DNA of 64,000 bases. Origin: a virus. Every line of letters starts with the position of its first letter. The first letter of the stretch is position 1. This document shows positions 23,197-45,901 of this stretch, in pieces. The notes under the pieces were generated by a model, which saw only the letters and a list, made by a program, of their open reading frames with translations, was not told the DNA's origin and did no database searches. The stretch covers positions 105,714 through 169,713 of IMG/VR virus record IMGVR_UViG_3300019776_000919; one strand, 5' to 3'. Position numbers and translations under genes: made by a program.

Positions 23197-23205
23197 CTTA
23201 TACCA
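23197..23205 (-). promoter_or_regulatory. TGGTATAAG promoter-like motif
   Basis: Exact copy upstream of 23163. Confidence 0.65.
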
Positions 23206-23261
23206 GAAATACTAGATATTTGTAATTGCATCTAATACTTCTTTACTGCTAAAATATAACC

Positions 23262-25088: not shown

Positions 25089-25094
25089 TTAAAT

Positions 25095-25901: not shown

Positions 25902-25913
25902 CTCAATTATACA

Positions 25914-25926
25914 TACGAACTAAAAT
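25914..25926 (+). promoter_or_regulatory. + strand promoter-like motif TACGAAYTAAAAT
   Basis: Same 13-mer at 28549 and 56330, all intergenic before structural genes. Confidence 0.6.
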
Positions 25927-25959
25927 AAGCTATAATCCCACAACAGTAACTAAATAATT

Positions 25960-27879: not shown

Positions 27880-27887
27880 GATTAACA

Positions 27888-28529: not shown

Positions 28530-28548
28530 AACTAATACTTATTAGGCC

Positions 28549-28561
28549 TACGAATTAAAAT
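28549..28561 (+). promoter_or_regulatory. + strand promoter-like motif TACGAATTAAAAT
   Basis: Motif copy ending 6 nt before ATG 28568. Confidence 0.6.
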
Positions 28562-28567
28562 CAACTT

Positions 28568-29635: not shown

Positions 29636-29648
29636 ATTGAGAACAAAA

Positions 29649-30179: not shown

Positions 30180-30180
30180 A

Positions 30181-30444
30181 ATGGACAAGTCTAGCAAGTT
30201 ACTAGATTGGGCTGAAAAGTCCATCACTGAACTTAAGAATATGCCTATTCATAATAAGATAGGGTTAGGATTAGGCGTAACTTCACTTGGGCTAGGGTTA
30301 GTAAACTACCATAATAATAAAGTTAAATTAGATATGGATAAAGCAAGAATTGATCTAGATAAAGAGAGAGTTAATTTAGATATGAAATCCCTTTCTGCTT
30401 TACAAAAAATCCACAAAGCTTTATCAAAAAAATCTAACATCTAA
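30181..30444 (+). CDS. small protein with Gly-rich hydrophobic segment and coiled coil
   Basis: IGLGLGVTSLGLGL; repeated LDxDKxR. Confidence 0.7.
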   Translation: MDKSSKLLDWAEKSITELKNMPIHNKIGLGLGVTSLGLGLVNYHNNKVKLDMDKARIDLDKERVNLDMKSLSALQKIHKALSKKSNI

Positions 30445-30452
30445 ATTACCCC

Positions 30453-31976
30453 ATGTTAAAACTTATAGACATAGACTCTTCTTTCTTCAATGAAGAGCCT
30501 GTGGTTAGAATTATAAACACTGATTCTAATTTTCCATTGGAGAAGACTGCAGCTGATTCTAGGATAAATACTTTTATCTCCGATCTTAAACCGGAACAAG
30601 ATAAAATATACGTCCACATTTTAGCTATGGGGGCTGGGGAATACTTTGGGGCTAATAGAAATGCAGACTATTTCCCTGAAGATAATCTTATCAAATGGCA
30701 TGATACATTTAGAACGTCTCCTGCGCATATCTTTAAGCATCACATAAATAAAAATCCTGAGATTGCTATTGGTAAGGTCATTTTTTCCGTATACAACGAA
30801 AGAATGCACAGAGTAGAAGTTATTGCTTGGATTGATAAGAAAAAAGGATGGGATGTAGTTGATAAAATCGAGAGGGGTGAGTTCCCTGCTACTTCAATGG
30901 CGTGCCATACTCCGTATGATACTTGCTCTATTTGTGGAAACAAAGCTAGATCTCGTAATGAATATTGCTCTCATTTAAGAGGTGAACTGGGTAAAGTCCA
31001 TCCTACTGGTGAAAAAACCATGGCCATCAATGATGGAGCCCTTAAGTTTTTTGATATGTCAGTAGTATTTAAACCTGCAGATGTTACTAGTAGTGTATTA
31101 CAAAAAGTTGCTTATGCTGATCAATCTATTACCGGTTCTGCAGAGTCTGCGGAAATGATGGGTTTAGGTGAAAAAACTACTGAACTTAAAAAGTTAAGTT
31201 CGATGATTAAAGAGATTGAAGGAACTATGATCAATTCCTCAGACTCTTTAAAAGCAATCTTAGACAAAGTTAAGGACCCAGAAGAAGAAGTAATTTCTCT
31301 TTTAGAAGATTTAGAACTTGATCACGTAATTCATGCATTTGCAGAATTAGGCATCTCACCGTCTGTAGGGTTTTTTGCTAAGTTAATCGGTAGAAAAATT
31401 TGTGGCGAGGATGTCGCCGGAATAGAGACGTTAGTAAAAGGTTTAATTCAAGTAGACGGTGATAAGGTACATGTACCGGAACAAGGTCTTTCTAAAGTTG
31501 CATCTACCTATGAAGTAAACCATGCAATTTCTATACTGTCGCCTATGACTAAACAATGTTCTATTTTCCCAGACATTGTTATGCAAAGAGAGCTGGAAAA
31601 TTCAAACCCTGGATTTATACATCAAAGCGGGTTGGATTATATGAATTCTTCCAATGTAGGATATATCGGTAATGGACCTTATCCTGCTGCAGACCCTAGA
31701 AAAACATATTTACATTTGAGAGACGTTTACAGAGAGAAAAACTCAGATGGCTCTAGTATTTTGAAAACTTTATTTACTATCGGTGGCGCAGCAATAGCCG
31801 CTAAATGGCTAGTGTCGAAACTTATCGAAAGTAAAATGCAGGAACTTAGAGAAGAAATTCGCAAAGATAATTCTTCCCCAGTTAAAATAGTATTAGTTAA
31901 ATCGGCTGAACAAGCTTTCACTACTCAACAATTAGTTAAAGCATCCCTCTTGAATAGTTTAAAAACTGGGTTATAA
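30453..31976 (+). CDS. prohead (maturation) protease with Zn-finger insertion
   Basis: NRNADYFP, FKHH.N, TSMAC..CSICGN..YCSH, FFDMSVVFKPAD; lies upstream of scaffold and capsid genes. Confidence 0.75.
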   Translation: MLKLIDIDSSFFNEEPVVRIINTDSNFPLEKTAADSRINTFISDLKPEQDKIYVHILAMGAGEYFGANRNADYFPEDNLIKWHDTFRTSPAHIFKHHINKNPEIAIGKVIFSVYNERMHRVEVIAWIDKKKGWDVVDKIERGEFPATSMACHTPYDTCSICGNKARSRNEYCSHLRGELGKVHPTGEKTMAINDGALKFFDMSVVFKPADVTSSVLQKVAYADQSITGSAESAEMMGLGEKTTELKKLSSMIKEIEGTMINSSDSLKAILDKVKDPEEEVISLLEDLELDHVIHAFAELGISPSVGFFAKLIGRKICGEDVAGIETLVKGLIQVDGDKVHVPEQGLSKVASTYEVNHAISILSPMTKQCSIFPDIVMQRELENSNPGFIHQSGLDYMNSSNVGYIGNGPYPAADPRKTYLHLRDVYREKNSDGSSILKTLFTIGGAAIAAKWLVSKLIESKMQELREEIRKDNSSPVKIVLVKSAEQAFTTQQLVKASLLNSLKTGL

Positions 31977-32031
31977 TTCAGTCAATTTAGTTAAGAATAA
32001 TCTAAACAGAAAACCAAGGATAAAAAATAAA

Positions 32032-33969
32032 ATGGATCTAACTCTTGATCAACTGCTAGCTAGTTTTGAAACTGGCATGCAAAAATCAGCGTCGGAAGGC
32101 GAAGATAAGAAAGAAGAAGCTAAAGACGAGAAAAACGAATTCCCCTTCAAAAAGAAGGATGAAGAAGTTTCAGAAAAGTCTGAAGAAAAAAAGGACGAAG
32201 ATGAGTCTAAAGATGAATCCGAAGGCCAAGAAAAAGAAGCTTCACTAGCTGGTGCCGCTTTGGCTCGTGAAGTAATGCAAAAAGTAGCATCACTCAACCT
32301 GGACAATGGAATGAATAAACAAGCCTCAACCGCCGGTCAAGCACTGGCTCGTGCCCTTCTAAAGAAGGCCTCTGCTGGAGACGTATCTACGACAAACGGC
32401 ATTACCTCGGAAGCTGTTCCGAATAAGTCTCAAGTAGACAACGCTGAAATGGAAGCTGAAGGCGCTGCTGCTATTAAGGCCCTGCCTACTGGCGACGGCG
32501 TACGTAACTACGGAACCGTTAATGAGATTTTTGATGCGATGATTCAAGACGCTCTTGCACAAGGCGCTGCTTCAACTGATCAAGTTCATGAGCGTGGCGT
32601 TGCTAAGAATGAAGGTGCTGTTCTGGAACATGCTGTTCCGAATCAAATCAAAGTTGCCGCTATGAACGCCCTGATGCAAGGTGGTTTTGATTTTGACACT
32701 GCTGCCCAACTCTTGAAGTCTGCCGAAAGAAACGATCATAAAATTGAAGGATATATTTCCCCCGCTTGGCAAGAAAATGCCATTGCTAAGGACCACGGTA
32801 AAGAAGGCCTTAAGGGCGTAGGCGCTAATGTAAGTAAACACATTACCGGAGGCCTTAGAGTAGCTGGACGGGGATATCTAGAAGGTTTTGGCGGCAGCGT
32901 TGCCGGAGGTCTAATAGGCCAAGCTGTTGGGCTTGCAGGTAAAAATGCCCATGCTGTTAGAACCGGAACAAGTGTCGGAGCTACTTTAGGTGGACTTGGC
33001 GGCTTGGCTCATGGCGTTTATTCCTCTCTGAAAAACCAAGCTGATGAAGCCCATAAGAAGTATGCTTCAGAACAAGACCAATCGCAAGACGAAATCGAAA
33101 AGGCCGCCGCCATTTCCCATCTGGTCGCTAATGGCGTTAATTTTGACGACGCTTTTGAAATGGTTAAACAAGCCGAAGCTGAAATTGCTTTTGAAATGGA
33201 AAAAGCCGCTTGTCTGGAAACCCTGATCAATGAAGGTGTAGATTATGATTCAGCCGTTGAGTTGGTTAAGCAAGCTGCTGCTGGTGATCTGAACACTACT
33301 GATGGTGTTAATCCTGGCTCGGTTCCTAATAAGAACCAAGAAGACAACGCTCAGATGGAAGCCGAAGGCGCTGCTACGGTAAAGCCGCTGCCCACTGGTA
33401 ACGGTATTGCTGCTCAAGGTAATGTAAACCAAATTTTTGACGCCATCGTAGATGATGCTCTGGCTCAAGGCGCTGCTTCAAGTGACCAAGTTCACGAGCG
33501 TGGTGTATCGAAAGCCGAAGGTGCTGTAGAAGCTCATGCCGTTCCTAATCAGGTTAAGGTCGCTGCCATGAATAAGCTGTTGGAAGCCGGTGTTGATTTT
33601 GAAAAAGCTGCTGAAATTGTTAAGCAGGCTGGTGCCGCTGCAATTCCCAGTTTTCTCACCAAAGTAAGAGGCAACGCCATTAACGCTGTCAAAGATGCTA
33701 AGGCCCTAGTTGGAGCTGGTCCTAGCCGGTTCCCGATGGCTCCGGATTCAAAAGGCATGATCCGTCCTTTGAAGAGAGACAGTGCAATGGGATTGGTTAA
33801 GAATCCTGTGGTTCAAGCTGGAGCTGCTACCGCCGCTGCCGGTGCCGGCGCTGCTGCCCTGAGTCGTGAAAAGAAAGCTGCCGTCGATATGCTGACGGAA
33901 GCCGGTATTGACTTTGACTCAGCTGTAAGCTTGGTTAATGAAAAGGCCGCTGAACTGTACGGTGAGTAA
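32032..33969 (+). CDS. scaffold/core polyprotein-like protein with internal repeats
   Basis: Acidic N-terminus, ~17 K-x-A/S motifs, 117 aa duplication. Confidence 0.65.
   Translation: MDLTLDQLLASFETGMQKSASEGEDKKEEAKDEKNEFPFKKKDEEVSEKSEEKKDEDESKDESEGQEKEASLAGAALAREVMQKVASLNLDNGMNKQASTAGQALARALLKKASAGDVSTTNGITSEAVPNKSQVDNAEMEAEGAAAIKALPTGDGVRNYGTVNEIFDAMIQDALAQGAASTDQVHERGVAKNEGAVLEHAVPNQIKVAAMNALMQGGFDFDTAAQLLKSAERNDHKIEGYISPAWQENAIAKDHGKEGLKGVGANVSKHITGGLRVAGRGYLEGFGGSVAGGLIGQAVGLAGKNAHAVRTGTSVGATLGGLGGLAHGVYSSLKNQADEAHKKYASEQDQSQDEIEKAAAISHLVANGVNFDDAFEMVKQAEAEIAFEMEKAACLETLINEGVDYDSAVELVKQAAAGDLNTTDGVNPGSVPNKNQEDNAQMEAEGAATVKPLPTGNGIAAQGNVNQIFDAIVDDALAQGAASSDQVHERGVSKAEGAVEAHAVPNQVKVAAMNKLLEAGVDFEKAAEIVKQAGAAAIPSFLTKVRGNAINAVKDAKALVGAGPSRFPMAPDSKGMIRPLKRDSAMGLVKNPVVQAGAATAAAGAGAAALSREKKAAVDMLTEAGIDFDSAVSLVNEKAAELYGE
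32374..33630 (+). repeat. 351 bp in-frame duplication (32374-32724 and 33280-33630)
   Basis: AGD..T.G...VPNK.Q.DNA.MEAEGAA...DALAQGAAS.DQVHERGV...HAVPNQ.KVAAMN occurs twice. Confidence 0.9.
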
Positions 33970-34002
33970 TTTGGAAGACCTGGGAAACTAGGTCTTTTAA
34001 AA

Positions 34003-34542
34003 ATGACTAACAAGTACATTACTAAAATCGCATCTCACGGGATCTCTGATAAAGTCAGGGATCCTGATTTAGCTCGTGCCGCTGGAAAAGGCTTTTTATA
34101 CGGGTCTGTCGGATCTGCTATTGGAGCCAGGGGCGGCGGACTGACTTCTTTGATTGGTGCCGTTGCAGGCGGATATCATGGATATAAGTCTTCTTTAAAG
34201 AACCAGCTCAAAGATCAACAACTCCATGACATTAAACTTCAGGGGGCGGCTCAACGGCAAGAACTCCATGAAGCTAAAATGCATAAGATGGCGGAAGAAA
34301 AAGATCCCCGCAAAGGTTTAAAAGAAGCCATCAACGTCGGTACTATTGCAGGGTTGGGTGGATTGGCTACTTTTGGTGCAGCTAAAGCTACAAACAAATT
34401 ACTGCCGGTAATTGCAAAAAAATTCCCCAAGGTAACTCATAATGGTCTGTTGACCGGACTGGGTACTATCGGTGGTTTGGCTGCAGATTACGCAGGGCTT
34501 AAAATCGGTGATGCAACTAACAAACACATAGACAAATTATGA
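34003..34542 (+). CDS. Gly-rich putative internal virion protein with MTNKYITKIA tag
   Basis: Tag; two glycine-zipper modules separated by MHKMA. Confidence 0.7.
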   Translation: MTNKYITKIASHGISDKVRDPDLARAAGKGFLYGSVGSAIGARGGGLTSLIGAVAGGYHGYKSSLKNQLKDQQLHDIKLQGAAQRQELHEAKMHKMAEEKDPRKGLKEAINVGTIAGLGGLATFGAAKATNKLLPVIAKKFPKVTHNGLLTGLGTIGGLAADYAGLKIGDATNKHIDKL

Positions 34543-35132
34543 AACTGTCAACACTACTATACAAACAAGCTCAAGAGCTTCGCACTCAATCCACAGAATA
34601 TGTGGCGGTTGATCTTCTGAAAAAGGCTGGCATGGATGAAACTCAAGCCAGATTTGAAGTAGCTCAAAAGCTGATGGAAAAAGAAGCTACTGACTATTTG
34701 GTTAACTCTGGGATTGATTATGACACTGCATTGGAAATGGTTAAGATTGCCAACGTCAATGTAAAAGAGTTGGCTTCATTTAAAGTGGAGCCTTCGGAAG
34801 AAGAAGTTCTTTCTTTGAATATTGAAAAAGCTGCCGGGTTAGCAAAAGAGTTGGAAGAAAAGGTTGCTGACTATGATTCCCTGTTGGAAAAAGTAGCTCA
34901 ACTGGAAGCTCAATTGGCCGATAAACCGGAAGTTGAAACTGTATCTGAACCAATGCAGAAGTTTGCTAAGTCAGGTGCGTTTACAAATGAAGATTTGGAA
35001 GCCCTTAGAAAGCTTTCTACGGAAACCTTATCTAAAGTAGCATCATTGTCGGAACAGCCTTGGTCTTTAGGTAAGTCAGATCATTCAGATGTTGAATCAT
35101 TAGATCCGCTTGCTCAATTCTGCTTAAGCTAA
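34539..35132 (+). CDS. coiled-coil scaffold-like protein rich in K-x-A motifs
   Basis: Shares the EKxA..L...GIDYD.A..MVK.A module with 32032..33969. Confidence 0.65.
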   Translation: MKLSTLLYKQAQELRTQSTEYVAVDLLKKAGMDETQARFEVAQKLMEKEATDYLVNSGIDYDTALEMVKIANVNVKELASFKVEPSEEEVLSLNIEKAAGLAKELEEKVADYDSLLEKVAQLEAQLADKPEVETVSEPMQKFAKSGAFTNEDLEALRKLSTETLSKVASLSEQPWSLGKSDHSDVESLDPLAQFCLS

Positions 35133-35134
35133 AA

Positions 35135-35383
35135 ATGAATAAGTATTTACTAAAAATAGCAAGTATGTGGACTTCGGGGGAGACAGTATCTCCTCCGAAT
35201 CCTCATGTATTCAACCCGTCTTCTCCTCATTATGCACCTAGAGTGGCTAGAAGATCAGCTCTTCTAAAGGGGGCCGGAGGGTTAGCTGCAGGGCTTGGAG
35301 CTGGATATTTAGCAATAAAAGCTCTTAATCATTCTTCTGATCAAAACAACCAATATCAAGACTACTCTCAGTATGGCCAATAA
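35135..35383 (+). CDS. small protein with MNKYLLKIA tag
   Basis: Tag; GAGGLAAGLGAG glycine zipper. Confidence 0.75.
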   Translation: MNKYLLKIASMWTSGETVSPPNPHVFNPSSPHYAPRVARRSALLKGAGGLAAGLGAGYLAIKALNHSSDQNNQYQDYSQYGQ

Positions 35384-35702
35384 ATACCTAGAGAAAATTG
35401 CTCTTAATAAGTTTGAACAAAAAGTATCATCTGGGATTATCTCCAATGATCCTCGTGTTCAAGCAGTCGCTTCTAAACTAGAAGACTCTAAGAAGTTTTT
35501 ATCTAAATATCCGCATTCCCATGTAAATGAGTTAGTGGATCTACATAAAGACTTTAGTCCAGTAAGAGAAGCACGGGGTAAGTATCGTTCTGCATTAGGA
35601 TCAAACCCGGTTACTCACTTTAAAAACGTGGGTGATAGCTTGGCTCATGGAGCCCCTAGTATTGCTAAGAAGCTTTCTTTTTTAGCTAGAGTACGTGGAT
35701 GA
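35373..35702 (+). CDS. small protein with MANKYLEKIA tag
   Basis: Tag; overlaps both neighbours. Confidence 0.75.
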   Translation: MANKYLEKIALNKFEQKVSSGIISNDPRVQAVASKLEDSKKFLSKYPHSHVNELVDLHKDFSPVREARGKYRSALGSNPVTHFKNVGDSLAHGAPSIAKKLSFLARVRG

Positions 35703-36193
35703 ATCGGTACCTTGAAAAAATAGCATTGAATAGGTTTGAGCAGTATTTAGCTGCTCAGCCTAAAGATCGTATTTTCAAAAACCAACAAGTTCAAAAGACT
35801 TATAACTCTGTTCAGAAATCAGAGCAACTAGGTAGAATTGGTCATAAGATGAATTCTCTCGGTGGAGCCGGAGATAATTATCTAAAGCAATCTAGAGATG
35901 AACTTAGAAATAGCCGTGGTAAATTTGGAGTTTGGGATAAGGAAACTCAACCCAATAGAGCTTTTAAAAAACCAGAAGACGTAGCAGCTAAGAATGCTAA
36001 AAAACCCGTTATAGATAAACGTATCAAGGCTCCTAAATTTGATCCTTTAAAACGTTTAGCTGAGTCTGAATATAGGTACAAGCCTATAGTAAGAACTCCA
36101 GCTAGTAAAGGGATGAAAGCCCTGGCTGCATTAGCTGCTGCTGGTGGGGCTGGATTAATTGGTTACGGAATAAAGAAAAATATAACGGAATAA
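35699..36193 (+). CDS. basic protein with MNRYLEKIA tag
   Basis: Tag; C-terminal ALAALAAAGGAGLIGYG. Confidence 0.75.
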   Translation: MNRYLEKIALNRFEQYLAAQPKDRIFKNQQVQKTYNSVQKSEQLGRIGHKMNSLGGAGDNYLKQSRDELRNSRGKFGVWDKETQPNRAFKKPEDVAAKNAKKPVIDKRIKAPKFDPLKRLAESEYRYKPIVRTPASKGMKALAALAAAGGAGLIGYGIKKNITE

Positions 36194-36725: not shown

Positions 36726-37643
36726 ATGTCATACAATACTGAAACTACTAACGTTCAATTCATGAACCAGAGCTTCCTCCAGAAGATCGACCAAGGCATG
36801 ACCAAAGAAGCTGGCGTTGCCATGACGGCGTTTGTTCGTCAAAAGCTGCGTGAAGACGCCTTCGTTCGTAAGATTCTGCCTTTCCAATCAGTAACTGCTG
36901 CTGAACTGGATCGTCAGACTGACGAAGAGCCCACCATCATCTGCGAAAAAGAACCTGACTCAGTTGCGGCTACCCTGCCGTTCCTGGCTCGTGCCCCGAT
37001 TCGTTACTGGACTGGTCCTCGTTACAAGGTAAACTTCCAGAAGCTGTCGTCAGATGACTTCCGTAAGTCAAAGTTTGAACTGATGACCTATCGTACGGAC
37101 ATCCGTACCGTTCTGCAAGAGAACTCGATCAAGGACATTCAAGAGCAAGAAGACTATGGTTTCTACCAGAATCTGCTGGCTATTGCTGCCAACAACACTG
37201 CTATCGGTGCCACTAACACCTACAGCATCTCTGGTTTCTCGAAGGCTAACTACCTGACAGGTATCAAGAAGCTGCTGGAAAGACGCCTGCCGGTTGGCTG
37301 TGTTCTGATGAGCCAGTCGCTGTACAACGACATGCTAGCCTTCCAGTCGACCGATATCGGTTCGCCTGCTGCCAGCTCACTGTTCATGGGTGAAGCCCAA
37401 CTGCAAGCCCCGTTCGGCTACAAGGTCATCACGACCAACAAGTCGACCGCTGCTAACAGCTTCTTCCCCACCAACAGAATGATCGTTTTTGCACCGCCTC
37501 AGTTCCTGGGTCAAGCGTTTTCGCTGCAAGATGCGACCGTATTCCTCAAAGCTGAGCTGGATATGATCGAATTTACGGCTTACGAATCAATCGGTATCGG
37601 CCTGGGCAACACCCAAGGTTTCGTTATCATCGACTTCGTCTAA
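36726..37643 (+). CDS. major capsid protein (HK97-like fold inferred)
   Basis: Position after protease, scaffold and decoration genes; SD GGAGG; strongest codon bias; terminator follows; KLRED.F.RKIL and IQEQED patterns. Confidence 0.75.
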   Translation: MSYNTETTNVQFMNQSFLQKIDQGMTKEAGVAMTAFVRQKLREDAFVRKILPFQSVTAAELDRQTDEEPTIICEKEPDSVAATLPFLARAPIRYWTGPRYKVNFQKLSSDDFRKSKFELMTYRTDIRTVLQENSIKDIQEQEDYGFYQNLLAIAANNTAIGATNTYSISGFSKANYLTGIKKLLERRLPVGCVLMSQSLYNDMLAFQSTDIGSPAASSLFMGEAQLQAPFGYKVITTNKSTAANSFFPTNRMIVFAPPQFLGQAFSLQDATVFLKAELDMIEFTAYESIGIGLGNTQGFVIIDFV

Positions 37644-37657: not shown

Positions 37658-37687
37658 AAAAAAAGCCTAGCTAGTCTAGGCTTTTTT
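37658..37687. terminator. bidirectional intrinsic terminator
   Basis: AAAAAAGCCTAG-CTAGT-CTAGGCTTTTTT. Confidence 0.85.
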
Positions 37688-37694
37688 CTTTTGG

Positions 37695-39194
37695 TCATTT
37701 CAAAATTAAAACCCAGCGATCTTGACCGCAATCTTTGATTTTGAAATAACCATTTTTGTACATAATTTCAGATTCAGTCATTTCTTTCGGATATTTTTCT
37801 TTAAAGATATCTTCTAGCTTATGGCGTTGAAATGAAACTCTATTGAAACGTCTTTGACCCTTGCACCAAAAGTATCCAGGCTGACTGGAGCTAGAATAAG
37901 CAAAACCATTTTTCCAGTATACACCTCCAATACTCCATCTTCTATCGGAATAAGATACTATTCTTTTAGGGTTTTGATTTCTAATGAAGTGTTTAAGTAA
38001 CTTAGAAAATCCACCTATTACTGAAGTACTGGTTGAATACCTAAGCAGTTCATAACAATCTTCTTCTTGGTCTTCAAATCTAAACTTAGAAAAAGTCATG
38101 CATCCCACGAGATTATTTTCGTAGAATAGTCCGTACCTGAACGAAGAAGAATATGCATGCCCTTGAATATGATTGTTCGATTCAAACTCTTTAACAACTT
38201 GATTAGTGAGTTGTTTTATTTCACATTTTCTCGCAAAGACTTTCTTTGTCGAAGTTAGTATAGAACGGAGTTTGTTTTTGATAATGTCTTGTTTTTCAAG
38301 CCACTCATCTTCTAATACATGGATTATTCTGATCCCTGCTTTTAAATAAGATTCTGTTTTTTCAAACAAAGAATTTGAAGATGCCATGGCCCCTTCAAAC
38401 TTATCCCATTTAGAAGAAGGATCTCTGTGGAAGAATAATCCATTATATTCTATACCCAGGCTCAGTGAAGGAATGTATATATCCAATTCCATTTTTAAGC
38501 CTTCTACTGGTTTTACTCTACTAATAGCATCTGGCCTCAGGCCCTTTATAAATTCGAAGATTTCCAGCTCCGGACTGGATTTTCTAGTCAAAGAACAATG
38601 AGAGCATCTTTTACCGCTTAGGTAGTCCCCGGGCCTAATCATATAGGATCCGTGAACTTTACAATTAATTTCCGATAGTGTTTTACTGCTTACGTACTTT
38701 GTATTTTCAAAAGTATCGAGGCCAATATGAACAGAAGAAGCTTTTTCGATAAAATCATTGATGTCATCTGCTTGATCTTTAGCTCGTTTTTTAATGTTAC
38801 ATTTCGAGCAAAGAAATCTTCTTTTTTTTGAGATTACAGAAATTGGTTGCGTAGAAAAATCACCGTGTTCCTTACATGTAATATTTACGTATGTATGGGA
38901 ATCTACGTATGACACTTTGCTATAGCTACAATTCATCCAAGTATCCGGATAAATCTGTTTAATTTCTTCTATAAATGACTCGGTATTTCTCTTAGCACTT
39001 ATAGCGCATTGCCCGCAAGCAATACCATTTTTCCTAGTTACGTTTTTAAACGTACGAGTAACTTCGCCATGACGGGGGCAAATTACTATTGATTCGGAGT
39101 ACGACCCGTTATATGTAAACTTTGAGAAGTCATATTCAGGCCACATAGCCTTCATTTTTGAAATGGCTTCTTCGGGTTTTATTTTTATAGGCAT
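37695..39194 (-). CDS. homing-endonuclease-like protein: three C..HG..C..C repeats, PD-(D/E)xK domain, C-terminal GNAT/Mom-like domain
   Basis: CPRHG, CKEHG, CKVHG repeats; ELDIYIP..GIEYNG.FFH; YELLRY..GGFSKLL..SYSDRRWS.G.VY..GF. Confidence 0.7.
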   Translation of the reverse strand: MPIKIKPEEAISKMKAMWPEYDFSKFTYNGSYSESIVICPRHGEVTRTFKNVTRKNGIACGQCAISAKRNTESFIEEIKQIYPDTWMNCSYSKVSYVDSHTYVNITCKEHGDFSTQPISVISKKRRFLCSKCNIKKRAKDQADDINDFIEKASSVHIGLDTFENTKYVSSKTLSEINCKVHGSYMIRPGDYLSGKRCSHCSLTRKSSPELEIFEFIKGLRPDAISRVKPVEGLKMELDIYIPSLSLGIEYNGLFFHRDPSSKWDKFEGAMASSNSLFEKTESYLKAGIRIIHVLEDEWLEKQDIIKNKLRSILTSTKKVFARKCEIKQLTNQVVKEFESNNHIQGHAYSSSFRYGLFYENNLVGCMTFSKFRFEDQEEDCYELLRYSTSTSVIGGFSKLLKHFIRNQNPKRIVSYSDRRWSIGGVYWKNGFAYSSSSQPGYFWCKGQRRFNRVSFQRHKLEDIFKEKYPKEMTESEIMYKNGYFKIKDCGQDRWVLILK

Positions 39195-39213: not shown

Positions 39214-39462
39214 TTAATCCGGAATTTTTTCAGTATTTACAGTAACATTATCTGGATTAATAATTTCCAAATCACATACGTGGAGACAAACAATATCCCC
39301 TTTGTTGAATGCGCCGACTTTTTCTTCTGCCCTGGCCCTTACAAACCAAGTTCCTAAATCTTGTATTACCGTAAATTTCTTATTAGTCCAATAAGAAAAC
39401 ATTGTGTTCGTATATTTGACTAGAGTTCCAGGCTCGAACTTAGGCATTAAATCTTCATTCAT
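39214..39462 (-). CDS. SH3-like array member (last; lacks QLELF)
   Basis: KFEPGTLVKY...KKFTVI...DLEII, homologous to its neighbours. Confidence 0.75.
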   Translation of the reverse strand: MNEDLMPKFEPGTLVKYTNTMFSYWTNKKFTVIQDLGTWFVRARAEEKVGAFNKGDIVCLHVCDLEIINPDNVTVNTEKIPD

Positions 39463-39682
39463 TAAACAGCTCCATTTGAAGTTTTTCTTTTTTCTTTACA
39501 GGTTCGAATCTATACTCATAGTAGTTTGCAATTGATCCACTCTCTGACTCACACTTATATAGACACCTTCCTGGATAAGAAGTTCTGCTCAATCTTTTCA
39601 GTACTTTAAAGGTTTTACCGATTAGTTCAGTATCGCCTTTTACATAGACAACCAAGTCCCCAACATTAAATTTAAAAGACAT
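39455..39682 (-). CDS. SH3-like array member, C-terminal QMELF
   Basis: FNVGDLVVY...KLQMELFNE. Confidence 0.8.
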   Translation of the reverse strand: MSFKFNVGDLVVYVKGDTELIGKTFKVLKRLSRTSYPGRCLYKCESESGSIANYYEYRFEPVKKKEKLQMELFNE

Positions 39683-39906
39683 TAAAACAATTCCAGTTGA
39701 AGTTTTTCTTTTTTCTTTACGAGTTCAAATCTAGATTCATAGTATTCTAAAAGCTTACCCGTTTCTTCCGATTTGCATCGGTAAAGATTATTGCCTGACA
39801 CAAAGCTTTCTCTTAATTGCCGTATTATTTGGTAAGTCTTACCTATTAAATGTGAGTGGCCATCCACATAGGTAACTAAGTCACCAACTTTGAATTTAAA
39901 CGACAT
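39682..39906 (-). CDS. SH3-like array member, C-terminal QLELF
   Basis: FKVGDLVTY...KLQLELF; close paralog of 39455..39682. Confidence 0.8.
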   Translation of the reverse strand: MSFKFKVGDLVTYVDGHSHLIGKTYQIIRQLRESFVSGNNLYRCKSEETGKLLEYYESRFELVKKKEKLQLELF

Positions 39907-40136
39907 TAGAATAACTCCAGCTGAACATTGATAGGTCTAATATTTTCCAGATATAACTTTACCATATCACCTTTTTTATAAACGGTATCAGTAATGTCTT
40001 GATTACATACTGCACTTACCGTTTCAAATCCAAAAATAGAATTTGTTTTTATTACGGTAAATTTTTTCAAATGCCAGGTTGGATAATCGGGATTGACAAA
40101 TTGAACTTCATCATTTTCCTTAAAGGTCTTAATCAT
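39906..40136 (-). CDS. SH3-like array member, C-terminal QLELF
   Basis: FKENDEVQF...NVQLELF. Confidence 0.8.
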   Translation of the reverse strand: MIKTFKENDEVQFVNPDYPTWHLKKFTVIKTNSIFGFETVSAVCNQDITDTVYKKGDMVKLYLENIRPINVQLELF

Positions 40137-40365
40137 TGAATAACTCTAATTGACAGCGAGTCTTTTTTTCAATCGCTAATTCCAATTTACTATTACGTAT
40201 ACCAACAAAGACACCTTGTGTATATCTTTCATTAATATCCTCCATACAAACTACCCAAGAAATATCATGCCCGGGATTGGTAACTTTAAATCGTTTATTA
40301 AAAAGTTGCCCTTGGGAATTATCGGTGTATATAACTACATCGTCAATTTTGAACTTATAGGTCAT
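40129..40365 (-). CDS. SH3-like array member, C-terminal QLELF
   Basis: FKIDDVVIY...CQLELFND. Confidence 0.8.
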   Translation of the reverse strand: MTYKFKIDDVVIYTDNSQGQLFNKRFKVTNPGHDISWVVCMEDINERYTQGVFVGIRNSKLELAIEKKTRCQLELFND

Positions 40366-40594
40366 TAAATAATTCCAACTGGAGCCGTTCTTTTCGAGGA
40401 TTACATCGTTCCAAATTAATATTTGCTAGACGCACCGTCATCCCCGCCTTAACCTCAGGGAGGATATCTTCTAAACAAATTAAATCGGAAGTGAGGCCCT
40501 TAGATCGGATAACTCTAAACTTTTTGTCAAACCAGCCTGCGTTTAATTTTGAAACGTATCTAACTATATCGTCTTTGTTAAAGATAGGGTTCAT
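40355..40594 (-). CDS. SH3-like array member, C-terminal QLELF
   Basis: FNKDDIVRY...LQLELFNDL. Confidence 0.8.
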   Translation of the reverse strand: MNPIFNKDDIVRYVSKLNAGWFDKKFRVIRSKGLTSDLICLEDILPEVKAGMTVRLANINLERCNPRKERLQLELFNDL

Positions 40595-41063
40595 CAGAAT
40601 AGTTCTAATTGACTGCGAATTCTATCCGCCTTATCCGCTTTAAATATTTCTAATCTATCACTAAACAGTCTCACTCTAGAACTCTTTCGATAAACCTCAT
40701 CAATGTCTTCTAGACATATTGCAAGCGTACTTAATTCATCATATTTAATAATTTCAAATGTTTTTTTGTGCCAATTCTTTGCACTTTCAAAATTATATTT
40801 GACTACATCACCAGTTTTAAATTTATGTTTTTTCAAAATAATTCCAATTGAGGCCACGGTTTCTTTTTCAGATACTGATTCTAAGTATTCATTAAAAAGA
40901 GGTATATGATCCCCTTTTGAAAAAAATTCGCAACGTTTTCTAGGCATTCTACGATAGAAGTTGCCCCCTTAAAGGTAATAACCTTAAAAGTTTTATTGTT
41001 GAAGTATTTGTACTTAGGATTATTGAACTTAACAGTGACACCTTCTGCAAATACTTTTGTCAT
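40594..41063 (-). CDS. two-domain SH3-like array member broken by a -1 frameshift at a T7 run (40920-40926), C-terminal QLELF
   Basis: ORFs 40881..41063 and 40594..40947 join at AAT TTT TTT into two complete domains. Confidence 0.65.
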
Positions 41064-41299
41064 TGAAACAGTTCCAGTTGAGTTTTTTTGTTTTTAGATT
41101 CAACTAACTCCAAGAAGGTATGATCGAGAGTCACCAAGGATCCTTGTTTAAAGTATTCACTAACATCTTCTAAACAGATTGATTTTGACATAATATGCCC
41201 CGGCATACAAATCTTAAATTTTTTATCAAACCAATGCTCACAATGCTTAGTTTGCCGAATATATCTAACTACATCACCCTCTTTAAATTTATAGTTCAT
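41060..41299 (-). CDS. SH3-like array member, C-terminal QLELF
   Basis: FKEGDVVRY...TQLELFQ. Confidence 0.8.
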   Translation of the reverse strand: MNYKFKEGDVVRYIRQTKHCEHWFDKKFKICMPGHIMSKSICLEDVSEYFKQGSLVTLDHTFLELVESKNKKTQLELFQ

Positions 41300-41528
41300 T
41301 AAACAGTTCCAGTTGAGGAGAGATTTTTTTATGTTCTATTATCTCCAAATCCTCATTTGCAAGAGTTACAGGGGAGTGTTTTACGTACTTAGAGGTAACA
41401 TCTTCTAGACACCTTACATTGGACGCATAAGGATTAGAGTTAATAATCGTGAATGTTTTATTCAGCCACTCTTTATAATTAGGATTATTGAACTTAACAA
41501 TAACGCCTTCTGCAAATACTTTTGTCAT
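41289..41528 (-). CDS. SH3-like array member, C-terminal QLELF
   Basis: FAEGVIVKF...PQLELFNEL. Confidence 0.8.
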   Translation of the reverse strand: MTKVFAEGVIVKFNNPNYKEWLNKTFTIINSNPYASNVRCLEDVTSKYVKHSPVTLANEDLEIIEHKKISPQLELFNEL

Positions 41529-41749
41529 TGAAACAATTCCAATTGAGAGGATTTTCTCGAAACTAATTCTAAGTTCGTAGTCATAAACTTTACCGTTTCA
41601 TTTTTAAGCCAGCTACTCGGAAGATCTTCTAGAGTGGTAACACTCGTAGTGTTAGGATCAGAAGCAACAACTATAAATTGTTTATTGTACCAATCCTCGT
41701 ATTTAATATTGATAAACTTAACAGTATCTCCTTTATAGAACATCTTCAT
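41525..41749 (-). CDS. SH3-like array member, C-terminal QLELF
   Basis: FYKGDTVKF...SQLELFQ. Confidence 0.8.
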   Translation of the reverse strand: MKMFYKGDTVKFINIKYEDWYNKQFIVVASDPNTTSVTTLEDLPSSWLKNETVKFMTTNLELVSRKSSQLELFQ

Positions 41750-41978
41750 CGAATAACCCCAATTGGAGCGAGGGTTTTTTCTCTTTCACCAGCTCTAAGT
41801 AAAGGTTCAGAGTGCGTGCACTAGCACCTTTTGGGTAAATACTATTAATAAATTCTAAGCACACTAGAGTGGATTTACCATCATCAGAATAGAGCACTTT
41901 AAATTTTTTATTAAACCACTCTGGATATATATTATTCGTAAACCTAACAATATCGTCTTTTTTAAATCTTGGTTGCAT
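41733..41978 (-). CDS. SH3-like array member, C-terminal QLGLF
   Basis: FKKDDIVRF...LQLGLFDEDVL. Confidence 0.8.
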   Translation of the reverse strand: MQPRFKKDDIVRFTNNIYPEWFNKKFKVLYSDDGKSTLVCLEFINSIYPKGASARTLNLYLELVKEKKPSLQLGLFDEDVL

Positions 41979-42211
41979 TAAAACAGTTCCAATTGTGGAG
42001 TTGGTTTTTTTCTCTGAGGTACCAGTTCTACATTGCTGATTGAAATGCGGGCTATGCTATCAATAGGGTAACCACTGCTAACAAAATTTAAACACCTAGT
42101 AATACACGTATTATCTTCACAATCAATAATTTGAAATGTTTTATTAAACCAGTTTGGATATGTTTTATTATTAAACCTAACAATATCCCCTTTTGTAAAT
42201 GCTTTGTTCAC
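41978..42211 (-). CDS. SH3-like array member, C-terminal QLELF
   Basis: FTKGDIVRF...PQLELF. Confidence 0.8.
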   Translation of the reverse strand: MNKAFTKGDIVRFNNKTYPNWFNKTFQIIDCEDNTCITRCLNFVSSGYPIDSIARISISNVELVPQRKKPTPQLELF

Positions 42212-42471
42212 TAAAATAACTCCAGCTGACTTTTAGTAATGAATTCTTGCGAATGTACTAACTCTATATGATTTTCATTGAATAGGATTATAATTGATCC
42301 CTTAAGACGAAAAATATCTATGTTTTCCAGGCATTCTGCCCTAAAGTAATAACTGCCGTTTGTATATTGAAAAACTTTAAGTATCTTGAAAAATTTACCA
42401 TGCCAAGAAACATTGAAATTAACAGCAATATACTTTACAGTATCCCCTGCATTGAATTTAGGTGCCGACAT
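42211..42471 (-). CDS. SH3-like array member (first), C-terminal QLELF
   Basis: FNAGDTVKY...SQLELF. Confidence 0.8.
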   Translation of the reverse strand: MSAPKFNAGDTVKYIAVNFNVSWHGKFFKILKVFQYTNGSYYFRAECLENIDIFRLKGSIIILFNENHIELVHSQEFITKSQLELF

Positions 42472-43441
42472 CTATGTCAATACCTTCTATCTCTGTAGGT
42501 ATTTGTATTTGAAAACGATTTAAATAACGTTGGAAAATTGGAGCTGAATAGTCCACCATTGTCGAGGATTTTTTCTCAATAGAATCTGTACAAAATCCGA
42601 ATTTTACCCACTCACTATTAGAACTTTTATTGATGATGGAGAACCCTCTACTATCCATATACCGAGAAATCCAATTAGGCACTTCTCGTCTTGTCCACTC
42701 CCCCTTATACCCTTTATTTAGCAAAAAATACAAAGGCAAGACTGGACTATTAAATCCAGATGCAGACTCCAAGGCATTAAATTCCTCTATGATTCCCCCT
42801 CTGCTTGGGCTGATATCGGGGATTAAGCAAGCCTTTTGCTTATACTCATCCGGAAATGAAAAAAAGTCGCATGGATATCCTTGATACGTGACTGCAATAG
42901 TTTCTGAACTGACGCTCGATTGCGTGATATTAACTCCGTGAGAAATACGACTCATAAAGGAGCTACAAGATCCCGATTTAATTTCTGGTATTCTTACATC
43001 TTGCAGGTTAAGTTTGATAAGGTCAGGGTACATTCTGTTAAATAAATTTTGACCAGAATGTTTTTTATTAAATCTAAATTCAAACTCTTCTAAAAACGCT
43101 TTCGCCAAAGCTTGTAGATAAACCTCGTTATTGGTCAAATAACCTATGTAATAGGTTACTGATTCGTACGGTAAAGGTTTAGGTAGGCCCGGTACATCTT
43201 GTACATTAAAAAGACGAAAGTAGTTCTCCTTGCTTAAACTAAGTGGCCAACTACCGGCAGGCGTACGGCCTTTTACCAAATTCCATCTATATTTAATCAC
43301 CAATAACTGCAAGACGCTAACAATAGAAGATCGGAGAATTGTATCCGATAGGTTTCTAGCGCAGTTTACCGGATTGATAGATGTTACATATAAATTAGGC
43401 CTGAGAGGATATTTAGACCATTTTGGGTGGTTGTTATTCAT
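42458..43441 (-). CDS. divergent pyrimidine-dimer glycosylase (Pyr_excise)-like protein
   Basis: NLYV.S.NPV.CA..L.D, EEFEFRFNKKH and WTRREVPNW resemble family motifs. Confidence 0.45.
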   Translation of the reverse strand: MNNNHPKWSKYPLRPNLYVTSINPVNCARNLSDTILRSSIVSVLQLLVIKYRWNLVKGRTPAGSWPLSLSKENYFRLFNVQDVPGLPKPLPYESVTYYIGYLTNNEVYLQALAKAFLEEFEFRFNKKHSGQNLFNRMYPDLIKLNLQDVRIPEIKSGSCSSFMSRISHGVNITQSSVSSETIAVTYQGYPCDFFSFPDEYKQKACLIPDISPSRGGIIEEFNALESASGFNSPVLPLYFLLNKGYKGEWTRREVPNWISRYMDSRGFSIINKSSNSEWVKFGFCTDSIEKKSSTMVDYSAPIFQRYLNRFQIQIPTEIEGIDIDVGT

Positions 43442-43892
43442 TTTCAGACCAATCGTTTCTTTCTATTTCTACTGGCTTGCAGAAAACCTTTAAGATCTTA
43501 GAACTGGTTTTGGCTACAGTAATTGTGCTTATGCAGAGTAAAGACCCAATTCCTAAAACTAGATTAAAGATCAATCCCCCTCGAATCCATTCGGTAAAAA
43601 ACGGACTATATCCGTGAGATGCGAGTATTACTGTCCCTGGATCAATATTGGTTAGTAGGTTAACGTCATACATAAAATAGAATGCTGGCCACAGAAATAA
43701 AGATAAGACCATTCCAATTGCCATAAATAAAAGGACGCCTGCAAGAAAAAACAGTAATACAAAAGCTAATCCTGCCATTGATAAAGAGCCAAACAGACTA
43801 CAAATATTCCATTCCCCATGAGGGAAATCAGAAACTGCAAACTTGCAAACTTTAAACAAGATTGAATTATGTTTTATTACAAAGGGTTTCAT
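43434..43892 (-). CDS. membrane protein
   Basis: Two to three long hydrophobic segments. Confidence 0.7.
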   Translation of the reverse strand: MKPFVIKHNSILFKVCKFAVSDFPHGEWNICSLFGSLSMAGLAFVLLFFLAGVLLFMAIGMVLSLFLWPAFYFMYDVNLLTNIDPGTVILASHGYSPFFTEWIRGGLIFNLVLGIGSLLCISTITVAKTSSKILKVFCKPVEIERNDWSENE

Positions 43893-44474
43893 TCACATTT
43901 CTCCGGTAGAATTAGATTTGATTCGCTTAGATTTTTCGACGGGGATTTTCAGTAATTTATCCTGTATTTCCGACCATTCGAAAGGTTTCATTTCGTTACA
44001 GTCAACTCCAACATCCATTCTCCTAAGTGCAGGATCAAAAGGCAAAGTGCCATGATGATGCCCGTGAAGGTTGAAAGCCCCATGATGGGATCTATTCCAT
44101 GAAAGCTGTGGGAAGTGAGATAGAGTAACTTCGATCTTCTGTATTTTTATCTCATCAATTCTAAACTTTATAGAAACTGGATTGAAGAATCCGACGATTG
44201 GTACATTGTCGTGATTGCCGGTAATTAGACAAATACGTCCGTTGAATCGACTGAGCCAATGCAGGTATTTTCCCAAAGTTTCTGTATCATTTTTGACGAA
44301 TAAAAAGTCTCCGAGAAAGAAAACATCATCATGAGGCTTAACAATTTTGTTATGAGCTTCAATCAAACCTTCGTTCATTTCATCTACCGATGAAAATGGT
44401 CGATTGCAGTATTTGATGATGTTGGCATGGTTGATGTGATGATCAGATGCAAAGAAAATATTAGGTGTTTTCAT
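43893..44474 (-). CDS. calcineurin-like metallophosphoesterase
   Basis: SDHHINH, LGD, GNHD, SHFP, HGHHH, DVGVD. Confidence 0.9.
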   Translation of the reverse strand: MKTPNIFFASDHHINHANIIKYCNRPFSSVDEMNEGLIEAHNKIVKPHDDVFFLGDFLFVKNDTETLGKYLHWLSRFNGRICLITGNHDNVPIVGFFNPVSIKFRIDEIKIQKIEVTLSHFPQLSWNRSHHGAFNLHGHHHGTLPFDPALRRMDVGVDCNEMKPFEWSEIQDKLLKIPVEKSKRIKSNSTGEM

Positions 44475-44489
44475 ATATTTAAGTTAGAG

Positions 44490-44516
44490 AAAAAGAGAGG
44501 GGGGCAATCCTCTCTT
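44490..44516 (-). terminator. intrinsic terminator
   Basis: AAGAGAGG...CCTCTCTT stem with a T-tract on the - strand. Confidence 0.65.
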
Positions 44517-44531
44517 GGGTAGGTTAATTAT

Positions 44532-45833
44532 TTAACCTTTGCGGGAACTGGCAAGGTTACCGATACCACGACCATCAAAGGCTTGTACTTCGTAACCCAA
44601 AATGGTTTCAACATTGGCAAGAATTTCACCAACACGGGTCGCATCAAAATCAATGAACTTGCCATCCACCAACATTTGGTAAACGGCTTGGTTGGAAATC
44701 TGATCGGTACAGCTGACCATCACTTTGACACGGGGCCTGTATTTGGTCCCCAGATACTGAAGATCTTGACTGATTCGCTTGCGAAGACCGGCCCAATCCA
44801 AGTGAGCATACCGGATCGTCCCTTGGTATTTGCCCGGGACGTTTGTCCTGTCTTGGCCAAGGGTCCAATAATCGTCACACTCAACCCCATCCTTCGCCAG
44901 AACAGGCCCTGCCCCGTGGCGAGTGATGTAAGGTCGAGTGACGTACAAAACTTCTTCGATGTCGCAGCCTTCCTCGTCGCACGTCTTCACGACGTTCTGA
45001 AGACCCGTATTGCTGCGGGTCAAATGAGGGAAGTATTCGCCACGATTCTGATCAAGGAGCAGCCCTTGAGCGCCTTCGAAGACCACAAGTTCCGATGTGG
45101 GGAAGAACACGTTGGTATTCTTGATTTCATCAGAGCCAGAAGAAACAATTGTGCCCCGAGTTTCACCCAACCGCATCGTCTTCATGAAAGCATACGGATA
45201 CTTCAGGAACTCGGTCAACGCTTTGGAAAGCACCCGATCAGAAGTCCAATAGCCCAAAGGATCAGGGTTCAAGAAGTCGTTCAAACCACCCTCAAGGTGA
45301 AGTTTTCGGATTTGATTGAGGTAGTACCCTTGAATCTCTCCGGTAAACGACACCAGGTACGAGTCGTTCATCAAGTCTTCGGTATGAAGACCTGGAGCTT
45401 GCTTATTCAGCAAACGGGCCACAGTCTCACCAATACCATATCCGACCGAACCGTGGCGTTTGTCGCCACGTCCCATTTCTTTGACTTGGTTCAACGCAAT
45501 GTCCCAGGGGGACACCACAGGGCATTCAGGGTGGACCCGAATCAAGTTCGGGTGAATACCTTTGTCCACCAGATCGTTGCGCTCAGACCAAGCGTAATGA
45601 GGGTTCACCAAAACGTCCTTGGTATACCAGGTATTTCGGCCAAGCAACGTGCCTGATCCGAAGTTCTGATGGACGTGCCGCACGCCGTTCACGGTGACAG
45701 TATGACCCGCTTGAGAACCACCGTTGAAACGGATCACATCTTTGATTGCTTTTTCATTGCACACCTTGGCGACGGTGGCACCCTTGCCTTCATCACCAAA
45801 ATTGGCACCGATAACTACGATAGCTTTTTGCAT
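44532..45833 (-). CDS. purA: adenylosuccinate synthetase-like protein
   Basis: GDEGKG, RFNGGSQAGHTV, FEGAQGLLLD, TRHGAGP; start placed at MQKAIVV after SD AAGGA. Confidence 0.85.
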   Translation of the reverse strand: MQKAIVVIGANFGDEGKGATVAKVCNEKAIKDVIRFNGGSQAGHTVTVNGVRHVHQNFGSGTLLGRNTWYTKDVLVNPHYAWSERNDLVDKGIHPNLIRVHPECPVVSPWDIALNQVKEMGRGDKRHGSVGYGIGETVARLLNKQAPGLHTEDLMNDSYLVSFTGEIQGYYLNQIRKLHLEGGLNDFLNPDPLGYWTSDRVLSKALTEFLKYPYAFMKTMRLGETRGTIVSSGSDEIKNTNVFFPTSELVVFEGAQGLLLDQNRGEYFPHLTRSNTGLQNVVKTCDEEGCDIEEVLYVTRPYITRHGAGPVLAKDGVECDDYWTLGQDRTNVPGKYQGTIRYAHLDWAGLRKRISQDLQYLGTKYRPRVKVMVSCTDQISNQAVYQMLVDGKFIDFDATRVGEILANVETILGYEVQAFDGRGIGNLASSRKG

Positions 45834-45871
45834 GTTCCTTGCCCTCAATAAGGATGGTTGATTACACTATT

Positions 45872-45901
45872 CTTATACCATTTTTGAACAACTGAATTGA
45901 A
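45872..45901 (-). promoter_or_regulatory. conserved promoter-like motif TTCAA-N16-TGGTATAAG
   Basis: Exact copy upstream of the purA-like gene. Confidence 0.75.

Follow-up and report, generated by a model that had tools for sequence, protein, structure and literature searches.

A tandem array of fourteen SH3-like mini-proteins with a C-terminal clamp-binding-like peptide in a large phage genome

The stretch of DNA analyzed here (the window, 64,000 nucleotides) spans bases 105714-169713 of IMG/VR virus record IMGVR_UViG_3300019776_000919, which is 169,713 bp long and carries direct terminal repeats. At positions 39214-42471 of the window, the list of open reading frames (ORFs) and an alignment of their products showed 14 consecutive paralogous ORFs on the minus strand, which encode proteins of 74-86 amino acids (aa) and are referred to below as the array. 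Each protein consists of a small head domain and a short C-terminal tail, which in nearly all copies ends in or close to the peptide QLELF or a close variant of it. The individual copies are as follows; coordinates without a prefix refer to the window.

42211-42471, minus strand: copy 1, 86 aa, ends SQLELF followed by TAG; overlaps the upstream gene of a 327-aa protein by 14 nucleotides (nt)
41978-42211, minus strand: copy 2, 77 aa, GTG start in a TAGTG overlap, ends PQLELF
41733-41978, minus strand: copy 3, 81 aa, ends QLGLFDEDVL; the start of copy 4 lies inside its tail
41525-41749, minus strand: copy 4, 74 aa, ends SQLELFQ, ATGA overlap
41289-41528, minus strand: copy 5, 79 aa, ends PQLELFNEL
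41060-41299, minus strand: copy 6, 79 aa, ends TQLELFQ
40833-41063, minus strand: copy 7, full length, ends KKKPWPQLELF; one in-frame TAG at 40881-40883
40594-40836, minus strand: copy 8, 80 aa, TTG start in a TTGA overlap, ends SQLELF
40355-40594, minus strand: copy 9, 79 aa, ends LQLELFNDL
40129-40365, minus strand: copy 10, 78 aa, ends CQLELFND
39906-40136, minus strand: copy 11, 76 aa, ends VQLELF
39682-39906, minus strand: copy 12, 74 aa, ends KLQLELF
39455-39682, minus strand: copy 13, 75 aa, ends KLQMELFNE
39214-39462, minus strand: copy 14, 82 aa (77 aa from the ATG at 39447), without the motif, ends NTEKIPD

A first-pass annotation of this DNA had counted 13 loci with 14 domains. The number of domains is correct, but the number of loci is not, since translation resolved the supposed frameshifted two-domain gene into copies 7 and 8. 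A 117-aa ORF beginning with the ATG at 40947 extends copy 8 upstream, out of frame. Copy 7 itself is most likely a pseudogene, because no suppressor tRNA was found in the genome, in which ARAGORN detected 12 tRNAs and one transfer-messenger RNA (tmRNA), and because TAG also serves as the stop codon of copy 1; alternatively, the gene could give a tail-less product of 60 aa.

Adjacent copies are tightly packed, with stop and start codons that overlap or abut (TAATG, ATGA, TAGTG, TTGA). The alignment yields the consensus MxxKFxxGDxVxYxNxxxxxWxNKxFxVIxxxxxxxxxxCLEDxxxxxxKGxxVxLxxxxLELVxxKxxxxQLELF, and the core F..GD.V.(Y/F)....W..K.F.(V/I)......CLE......KG..V.L....LE(L/I)V is common to all 14 copies. 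Outside this core the heads are strongly diverged, with pairwise identities of 15-58% and saturated synonymous sites. The ratio of nonsynonymous to synonymous substitution rates (dN/dS) is below 1 for the closest pairs; as dS is saturated, this value speaks neither for nor against diversifying selection. The calculated isoelectric point (pI) lies between 6.5 and 9.6 in 13 of the 14 heads, mostly at 8-9.6, and copy 14 is acidic (pI 5.0).

The five-residue tail is by far the most conserved feature of the array. In twelve intact ORFs, Q(L/M)(E/G)LF is followed by 0-5 residues and then the stop codon, and a thirteenth motif, at 40836-40850, belongs to the interrupted copy 7; the first-pass annotation had described these twelve tails and the motif-less last gene in the same way. 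By type, the motif is QLELF in 11 copies (copy 7 included), QMELF in one and QLGLF in one. The peptide is largely confined to this locus: all stop-to-stop frames with 40 aa or more in the 169.7-kb genome together contain QL.LF 13 times, nearly always at the C-terminus of an array copy, and a DNA pattern for Q-[LMI]-[DE]-L-F has 13 matches on the array strand versus one for the reversed control. At the nucleotide level, the 13 motifs use 12 distinct 15-mers, which vary mainly at synonymous positions (CAA/CAG; CTG/TTG/TTA/ATG; GAA/GAG/GGG; TTA/CTG/TTG/CTA; TTT/TTC). This diversity, in the face of saturated synonymous sites, shows that selection acts on the peptide and not on the DNA. Codon comparison of the 13 motifs thus upheld the earlier view that synonymous codons vary while the peptide is kept; conservation is better at the peptide than at the nucleotide level.

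The same data bear on the proposal that the motif acts as a nucleic acid, serving either for ribosome binding or re-initiation at the next gene or as the site of recombination behind the duplications. The position of the motif, 0-18 nt upstream of the next start codon, would suit such a role, as would the GGAG that four of the 13 copies contain (in CTGGAG or ATGGAG). However, nine copies lack GGAG, and the number of different 15-mers is difficult to reconcile with a conserved DNA site. Moreover, a 4-mer resembling a Shine-Dalgarno (SD) sequence precedes only 26 of the 119 long ORFs of the genome, and the tail is retained where no co-directional gene comes after it (last copy of a related array on contig L013) or where the next gene is 82 nt away (a 196-aa ORF described below). 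The suggestion in the first-pass annotation that some motifs double as the SD of the next gene therefore does not hold, and a nucleic-acid function, largely refuted by the codon data, is extremely improbable.

To the head, we could assign a fold class. An AlphaFold model of copy 1, based on the 14-row alignment, has a predicted local distance difference test (pLDDT) score of 88 and a predicted template modeling (TM) score of 0.77, and comprises five strands and a C-terminal segment of low confidence. The motif comes after the last barrel strand and lies in this tail, where the pLDDT is 59-73, versus 89-96 in the barrel; the conserved N-termini (MxxKFKxGD) form part of the first strand. Foldseek returned weak matches (TM 0.55-0.6) to ribosomal L21e/L24-type barrels, nitrile hydratase beta, PWWP, NusG/Spt5 KOW and HspQ. 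In VIA-align, the best match was the DSIF KOW6-7 domain (Z 8.5, root-mean-square deviation (rmsd) 2.8 over 62 residues), followed at Z 7-8 by PsaE, NdhS, Tudor, chromo, HspQ and YorP of SPbeta; as such Z values are common for generic small barrels, these matches define a fold class and not a function. Neighbors of the head in the Atlas are KIN17 SH3, NusG and ZapC_C. Together, model and structure searches confirmed, at the level of predicted structure, that the head is an SH3-like small five-strand beta-barrel of the KOW/Tudor/PsaE class, as the first-pass annotation had supposed. The KOW domains of NusG/Spt5, PsaE, NdhS, Tudor, chromo, HspQ and YorP have this five-strand barrel in common with the array proteins, which do not belong to any of their sequence families. 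Consistently, Pfam and PHROG scans of ten copies gave no match with an E-value below 0.003, and all matches were under the curated cut-offs.

The fold brings two further explanations of the tail into play. SH3-like and Sm-like barrels often oligomerize and bind peptides, and the heads carry conserved, exposed-looking aromatic and basic residues (W22, K26, F28). In this light, the tail could dock on the neighboring barrel and assemble the 14 paralogs into homo- or hetero-oligomers, such as Sm/Hfq-like rings or chains, an arrangement to which the covalent tandem domains of some relatives (three in P0023, two in P0026) would lend themselves. This is very unlikely, since two unrelated proteins of the same genome bear the same tail (see below) and AlphaFold does not confidently pack the tail on the barrel.

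The second explanation holds that the hydrophobic terminus is a degron for Lon, ClpXP or a tail-specific protease, or a PDZ-type signal, making the proteins short-lived or turning them into protease-saturating decoys. HspQ, a Lon specificity-enhancing factor, is among the better structural neighbors (5ycq, Z 7.8, rmsd 2.2, 65 residues), at a Z that lies in the chance range. However, seven of the 12 intact motif-bearing copies have polar or acidic residues after the phenylalanine (NE, ND, NDL, NEL, Q or DEDVL). This shows that a free carboxylate is not required, and such ends are ill-suited to the recognition of a non-polar C-terminal carboxylate. In addition, the conserved glutamine and the leucine spacing are hallmarks of clamp motifs (PMC11139829), so that a role in proteolysis appears quite improbable as well.

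The peptide itself points to the bacterial sliding clamp, DnaN. The canonical clamp-binding motif is Q-phi-x-[L/M]-[F/L], of which QLxLF is the highest-affinity class (PMC11139829). All array tails fit this pattern, and the 13 motifs of the 14 copies are terminal and placed in a flexible segment. Furthermore, fluorescence polarization assays showed binding of a QLELF peptide, the motif of B. subtilis Pol I, to the DnaN proteins of B. subtilis and E. coli alike (bioRxiv 10.64898/2026.05.27.728225). We also co-folded copy 1 with E. coli DnaN, which gave a median interaction score (ipSAE) of 0.42, compared with 0.00 for the best control, with at least 86% of contacts in agreement between runs and a partner pLDDT of at least 75. 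Of 80 solved complexes, 58 reach the mark applied to this score, as do two of 110 mismatched pairs; at values of 0.60 or below, it is reached by only seven of the 80 solved complexes and by both passing mismatches, so that the support is weak. The pass may also reflect memory or likeness, because clamp-peptide complexes have already been solved. Thus, the clamp-binding-like motif of the first-pass annotation stands as far as its class and the in vitro binding of the exact peptide in the cited work are concerned, and the multimer prediction that it had proposed turned out positive but weak, with a stand-in clamp.

The genome of the phage provides the context for this motif. Its replication module contains a family A polymerase (PolA), a DnaG-type primase, a PD-(D/E)XK nuclease and a uracil-DNA glycosylase (UDG)-exonuclease, and the genome has no match to models of the DnaN N- and C-terminal domains, T4 gp45, PolB or Pol III alpha. 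The phage encodes a sigma-70-type factor and its own multisubunit RNA polymerase. Its major capsid protein (36726-37643) shares 48% identity with that of Salmonella phage Arash, and its RNA polymerase beta subunit is 52% identical to the Arash subunit and 50% to those of Vibrio phages D69, D148 and D181. Arash has been characterized as an orphan phage (PMC10585845). From the sigma-70-type factor, the tmRNA and the cultured relatives, which infect Salmonella and Vibrio, a bacterial host with a DnaN is expected; the hosts of these relatives also make E. coli DnaN a reasonable stand-in in the co-folding.

The tmRNA is of the permuted, two-piece type, with the tag ANDSSYVQALAA (ARAGORN; G000:C1:101936-102267, minus strand), and is located about 3.4 kb before the start of the window. 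As tmRNAs of this type characterize cyanobacteria, alpha-proteobacteria and some beta-proteobacteria, this one may be a clue to the host. The family A polymerase is split into two ORFs of 362 and 113 aa, about 260 nt apart (L011:2435-4128, minus strand), which could result from an intron, an intein remnant, the insertion of a homing element or a frameshift. Arash has a row of nine small genes of its own beside tRNA genes (gp73c-gp81c, 59-70 aa; L098:47003-48743, minus strand). Most of their products open like small barrels, with G.P(L/I)..GD.V.Y, and they have no common C-terminal tag. As a candidate for the same family, this row was rejected, because neither direction of searching with hidden Markov models (HMMs) revealed a resemblance to the array.

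The tail is also present on two proteins that are unrelated to the array and are encoded by the same genome before the window. A 196-aa orphan protein ending in TQLELF (L011:9839-10429, minus strand) is encoded in the replication module, between the PD-(D/E)XK nuclease and the DnaG-type primase, directly upstream of the latter and near the UDG-exonuclease and PolA genes. A 140-aa ORF ending in TQLEMF (L012:4656-5078, minus strand) is situated between Pnkp/Hen1 and the ribonucleotide reductase (RNR) genes. Neither has a homolog or a recognizable fold; for the 196-aa protein, this covers homologs, Pfam families and confident Atlas structures. The neighboring RNA-repair pair (L012:5482-9377, minus strand), upstream of the RNR genes, consists of a complete kinase-phosphatase-ligase Pnkp (865 aa) and Hen1 (433 aa). 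In unrelated GC-rich viral or metagenome contigs (L053:8724-8738; L059; L060; L186:6537-7273), proteins end in ...PYQLELFA or ...PVQLELFE, which shows that C-terminal QLELF tails exist on other phage proteins.

Taken together, the identity of the motif, the genomic context and the weak co-fold prediction make it somewhat more probable than not that the array encodes mini-proteins which dock on the host clamp, most simply as clamp blockers. Each protein would be a small, moderately basic SH3/KOW-like barrel that displays a clamp motif on a short, flexible and often basic C-terminal linker. For expression timing, clamp binding and the effect on the host, we infer the following course. The array would be expressed together with a block of genes for nucleotide metabolism, and its tails would dock in the hydrophobic DnaN pocket that is used by Pol III alpha, epsilon and delta, by Hda and by repair polymerases. 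Host clamps would thereby be competitively occupied, which would switch off host replication and repair, disturb the regulatory inactivation of DnaA (RIDA) and spare phage replication. Competitive occupation is the simplest consequence given that the phage has its own family A polymerase and no detectable clamp. Thirteen diverged copies might then provide a high dosage without recombination-prone identical repeats. As a second possibility, the heads may bring different partners to clamp-loaded DNA.

Several points weigh against docking on the clamp. With glutamate in place of aspartate at position 3, QLELF binds a few-fold more weakly than QLDLF (bioRxiv 10.64898/2026.05.27.728225), and E. coli DnaN stood in for the clamp of the true host in the co-folding. 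Thirteen maintained and strongly diverged copies also seem to exceed the needs of a simple competitor. Furthermore, the array family is absent from five relatives, namely L018, the complete 181-kb genome G002 and three fragmentary ones, and G002, the only relative scanned for C-terminal tails, has no credible gene with a C-terminal QLxLF. The tail system is therefore accessory, a distribution that simple competition does not readily account for either. Finally, a profile search showed that distant homologous heads carry a different conserved tail, [KR]xH[YWFL]PxW[WFLM]. As homologous heads bear this tryptophan-rich (W-rich) tail, the head appears to be a generic carrier that is not specific to the clamp and whose destination is set by the tail, and with such swapping QLELF, too, may address something other than DnaN. 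The genes with the W-rich tail are as follows.

L017:2174-3227, 6698-6919, 7892-8110 and 8907-9530; L065:164-693; L064:542-784: W-tail genes with C-terminal [KR]xH[YWFL]PxW[WFLM]

Contig L017 encodes at least seven small proteins with an H[YW]PxWW-type tail, two of which are clear homologs of the array heads and others of which have different N-terminal parts; on L065, three W-tail genes stand in tandem. The W-tail genes adjoin a cluster of amidoligase, GATase and RimK-like ATP-grasp genes, and the amidoligase gene allowed no inference on the host. A scan of IMG/VR for H[YW]PxWW arrays returned spurious repeats only. Since the E. coli clamp binds motifs with a tryptophan in the last position less well (PMC11139829), the W-rich tail probably addresses another hub.

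The tail of the array could likewise be a docking peptide for another hub, such as a phage capsid or scaffold receptor, the phage RNA polymerase or another host protein, and its match to the clamp motif could be coincidental. We regard this as unlikely, although tail swapping, seen in the unrelated tails of homologous heads, is a property of the family. In the candidate version with a capsid or scaffold receptor, the mini-proteins would be loaded into the virion for ejection, and the array does adjoin the major capsid gene. Diversified arrays of small genes with a common terminal tag also recall the internal proteins of T4. However, capsid targeting sequences of the T4 type are N-terminal and are cleaved by the prohead protease, and the tag of the array is C-terminal; a different, N-terminal tag, MNKYLxKIA, is the candidate virion-targeting tag in the same phage. 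The genes with the tail are lineage-specific and absent from relatives that presumably meet a host clamp as well, which would fit another hub. On the other hand, no candidate receptor was found, one carrier of the tail is the 196-aa protein of the replication module, and the match of the tail to the best-affinity clamp class is exact in 17 of 17 copies from the arrays of two phages.

A broader version of clamp docking combines it with tail swapping. In this "tool-belt", the heads would have diverged for different partners (DNA, RNA or host proteins) and would be plugged onto a host hub by an exchangeable C-terminal peptide, with QLELF leading to the beta clamp in the array lineage and H[YW]PxWW to another hub in another lineage. 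We consider this doubtful; if true, it would represent a general and undescribed way in which phages retarget host hubs, going beyond a simple competitive blocker of the clamp.

The distribution of the family is narrow. The copy number in relatives, to which the first-pass annotation had pointed, is informative in one of them: the phage represented by contigs L013-L016 has four diverged copies with the same kind of tail, ending in QMELF, QLELF, QLELF and QMELF, which come after the same neighborhood of PurZ-like, phosphoesterase and membrane-protein genes; the five relatives without the array have none. In the closest relative, L018, whose capsid protein is 83% identical, the Mom-like gene abuts the homolog of the 327-aa gene, with no array in between. 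The array is thus an accessory, expandable cassette, with four copies in one lineage and fourteen here. In L018, two adjacent small proteins encoded just upstream of the capsid genes (L018:8966-9465) share an N-terminal tag, MTNKYLxKIA (compare window positions 18537-36193).

When 1.84 billion representatives were searched exhaustively with a HMMER profile, 26 matches were obtained, 13 of which are the window's own proteins. The others are the L013 copies, the W-tail proteins, two or three proteins with tandem domains and spurious Ig-repeat proteins; the tandem-domain proteins show that some relatives link heads covalently. A word-indexed profile search returned nothing beyond the HMMER matches. 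Megablast of the region against phages had no match, and tblastn searches of 50,697 phage records, with one QLELF copy and with one W-tail copy, were equally negative. A search for related loci that started from the capsid protein yielded 30, none of which has the array. A scan of IMG/VR with a tandem QLELF DNA pattern returned just unrelated repeats or single genes with a C-terminal QLELF, and the same holds for the matches listed from a scan of metagenome contigs. Therefore, the array family is very rare in public data.

Within the window, the array is part of a minus-strand block of low GC content (33-36%), which is inserted beside the major capsid gene and comprises the following features.

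45872-45880, minus strand: promoter-like element TGGTATAAG, exact copy, upstream of the PurA/PurZ-like gene
42458-45848, minus strand: upstream genes of the strand block, whose order is kept beside the four-copy array of L013
44532-45848, minus strand: homolog of PurA/PurZ-like adenylosuccinate synthetase (Pfam E-value 4e-40, 275 of 416 profile positions)
43893-44474, minus strand: metallophosphoesterase-like gene, adjoining the PurA/PurZ-like gene
43434-43892, minus strand: membrane protein gene, upstream of the array
42458-43441, minus strand: gene of a 327-aa protein without assigned function, directly upstream of copy 1
37695-39194, minus strand: DUF723/Mom-like gene, 499 aa, downstream of the array, with zinc-ribbon repeats and a Mom-like C-terminal domain
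37659-37687, no strand assigned: terminator-like hairpin with a 12-bp stem, between the major capsid gene (plus strand) and the minus-strand block

The element TGGTATAAG has 10 exact copies in the window. Judging from the gene order, the copy at 45872-45880 likely starts a transcription unit that runs through the array. The pair of PurA/PurZ-like and metallophosphoesterase-like genes is reminiscent of the PurZ-type modules found in phages that use 2-aminoadenine instead of adenine. Downstream of the array, the 499-aa protein contains repeated CxxC/HG zinc-ribbon modules (DUF723) and a Mom-like domain that was detected at an E-value of 7.5e-5, which is below the Pfam cut-off; these sequence features make it a possible DNA-modification enzyme. 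Its counterpart in L018 is longer, with 637 aa and more repeats (L018:10982-12895).

If docking on the clamp is true, thirteen separately evolving genes that present a top-class clamp peptide on tiny, stable barrels would constitute a new strategy of host takeover. The array would also be a natural library of scaffold-borne ligands of the clamp pocket, which is a validated antibacterial target. The sister arrays with the W-rich tail suggest a broader principle, in which families of mini-proteins are sent to host hubs by swappable terminal peptides, and this principle could account for some of the small orphan genes of large phages.

Among known clamp binders, the tails most closely resemble those of the bacterial clients with a terminal motif, such as Pol II (QLGLF), Pol IV (QLVLGL) and B. 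subtilis Pol I (QLELF), for which the consensus is QL[S/D]LF. The pentapeptide is of the same class, a flexible linker likewise places it at the C-terminus or close to it, and copy 3 has the QLGLF of Pol II. In contrast to these clients, the carriers in the array are 75-aa barrels without an enzymatic domain, are encoded by a phage 14 times in tandem, and their docking is predicted.

Few phage proteins are known to contact the bacterial sliding clamp; they comprise MuC and Mor of Mu, Gp168 of Staphylococcus phage Twort and the T4 system with its own clamp. MuC and Mor, the late and middle transcription activators of Mu, are also small phage proteins with a near-consensus clamp motif; they dock on the host clamp via QxDLF (QHDLF, QPDLF), an interaction that couples transcription of the phage to replication, and when overexpressed they are lethal because they titrate the clamp (PMC12867686). 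However, MuC is a helix-turn-helix DNA-binding activator encoded by a single gene, whereas the array consists of 14 SH3-like copies without a known DNA site, and its phage, in contrast to Mu, has its own RNA polymerase and sigma factor.

Gp168 is a small protein that targets the host beta clamp and stops host replication, and it is reported to occupy the DNA channel of the clamp and not the peptide pocket (PMC8565349), whereas the array motif is of the pocket type. No homology to Gp168 was found: tblastn of one copy against the phage collection had no match, and Gp168 is not among the structural matches listed for the head, though the two may still be similar. In T4, the late transcription co-activator gp33 and the sigma factor gp55 are tethered to a sliding clamp by short hydrophobic C-terminal tails; they bind the phage's own gp45 clamp, are encoded by single genes and differ from the array in fold and motif. 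The docking of phage proteins on the host clamp is thus already known, and what the array adds to these systems is a tandemly expanded family of SH3-like mini-proteins, together with evidence for tail swapping.

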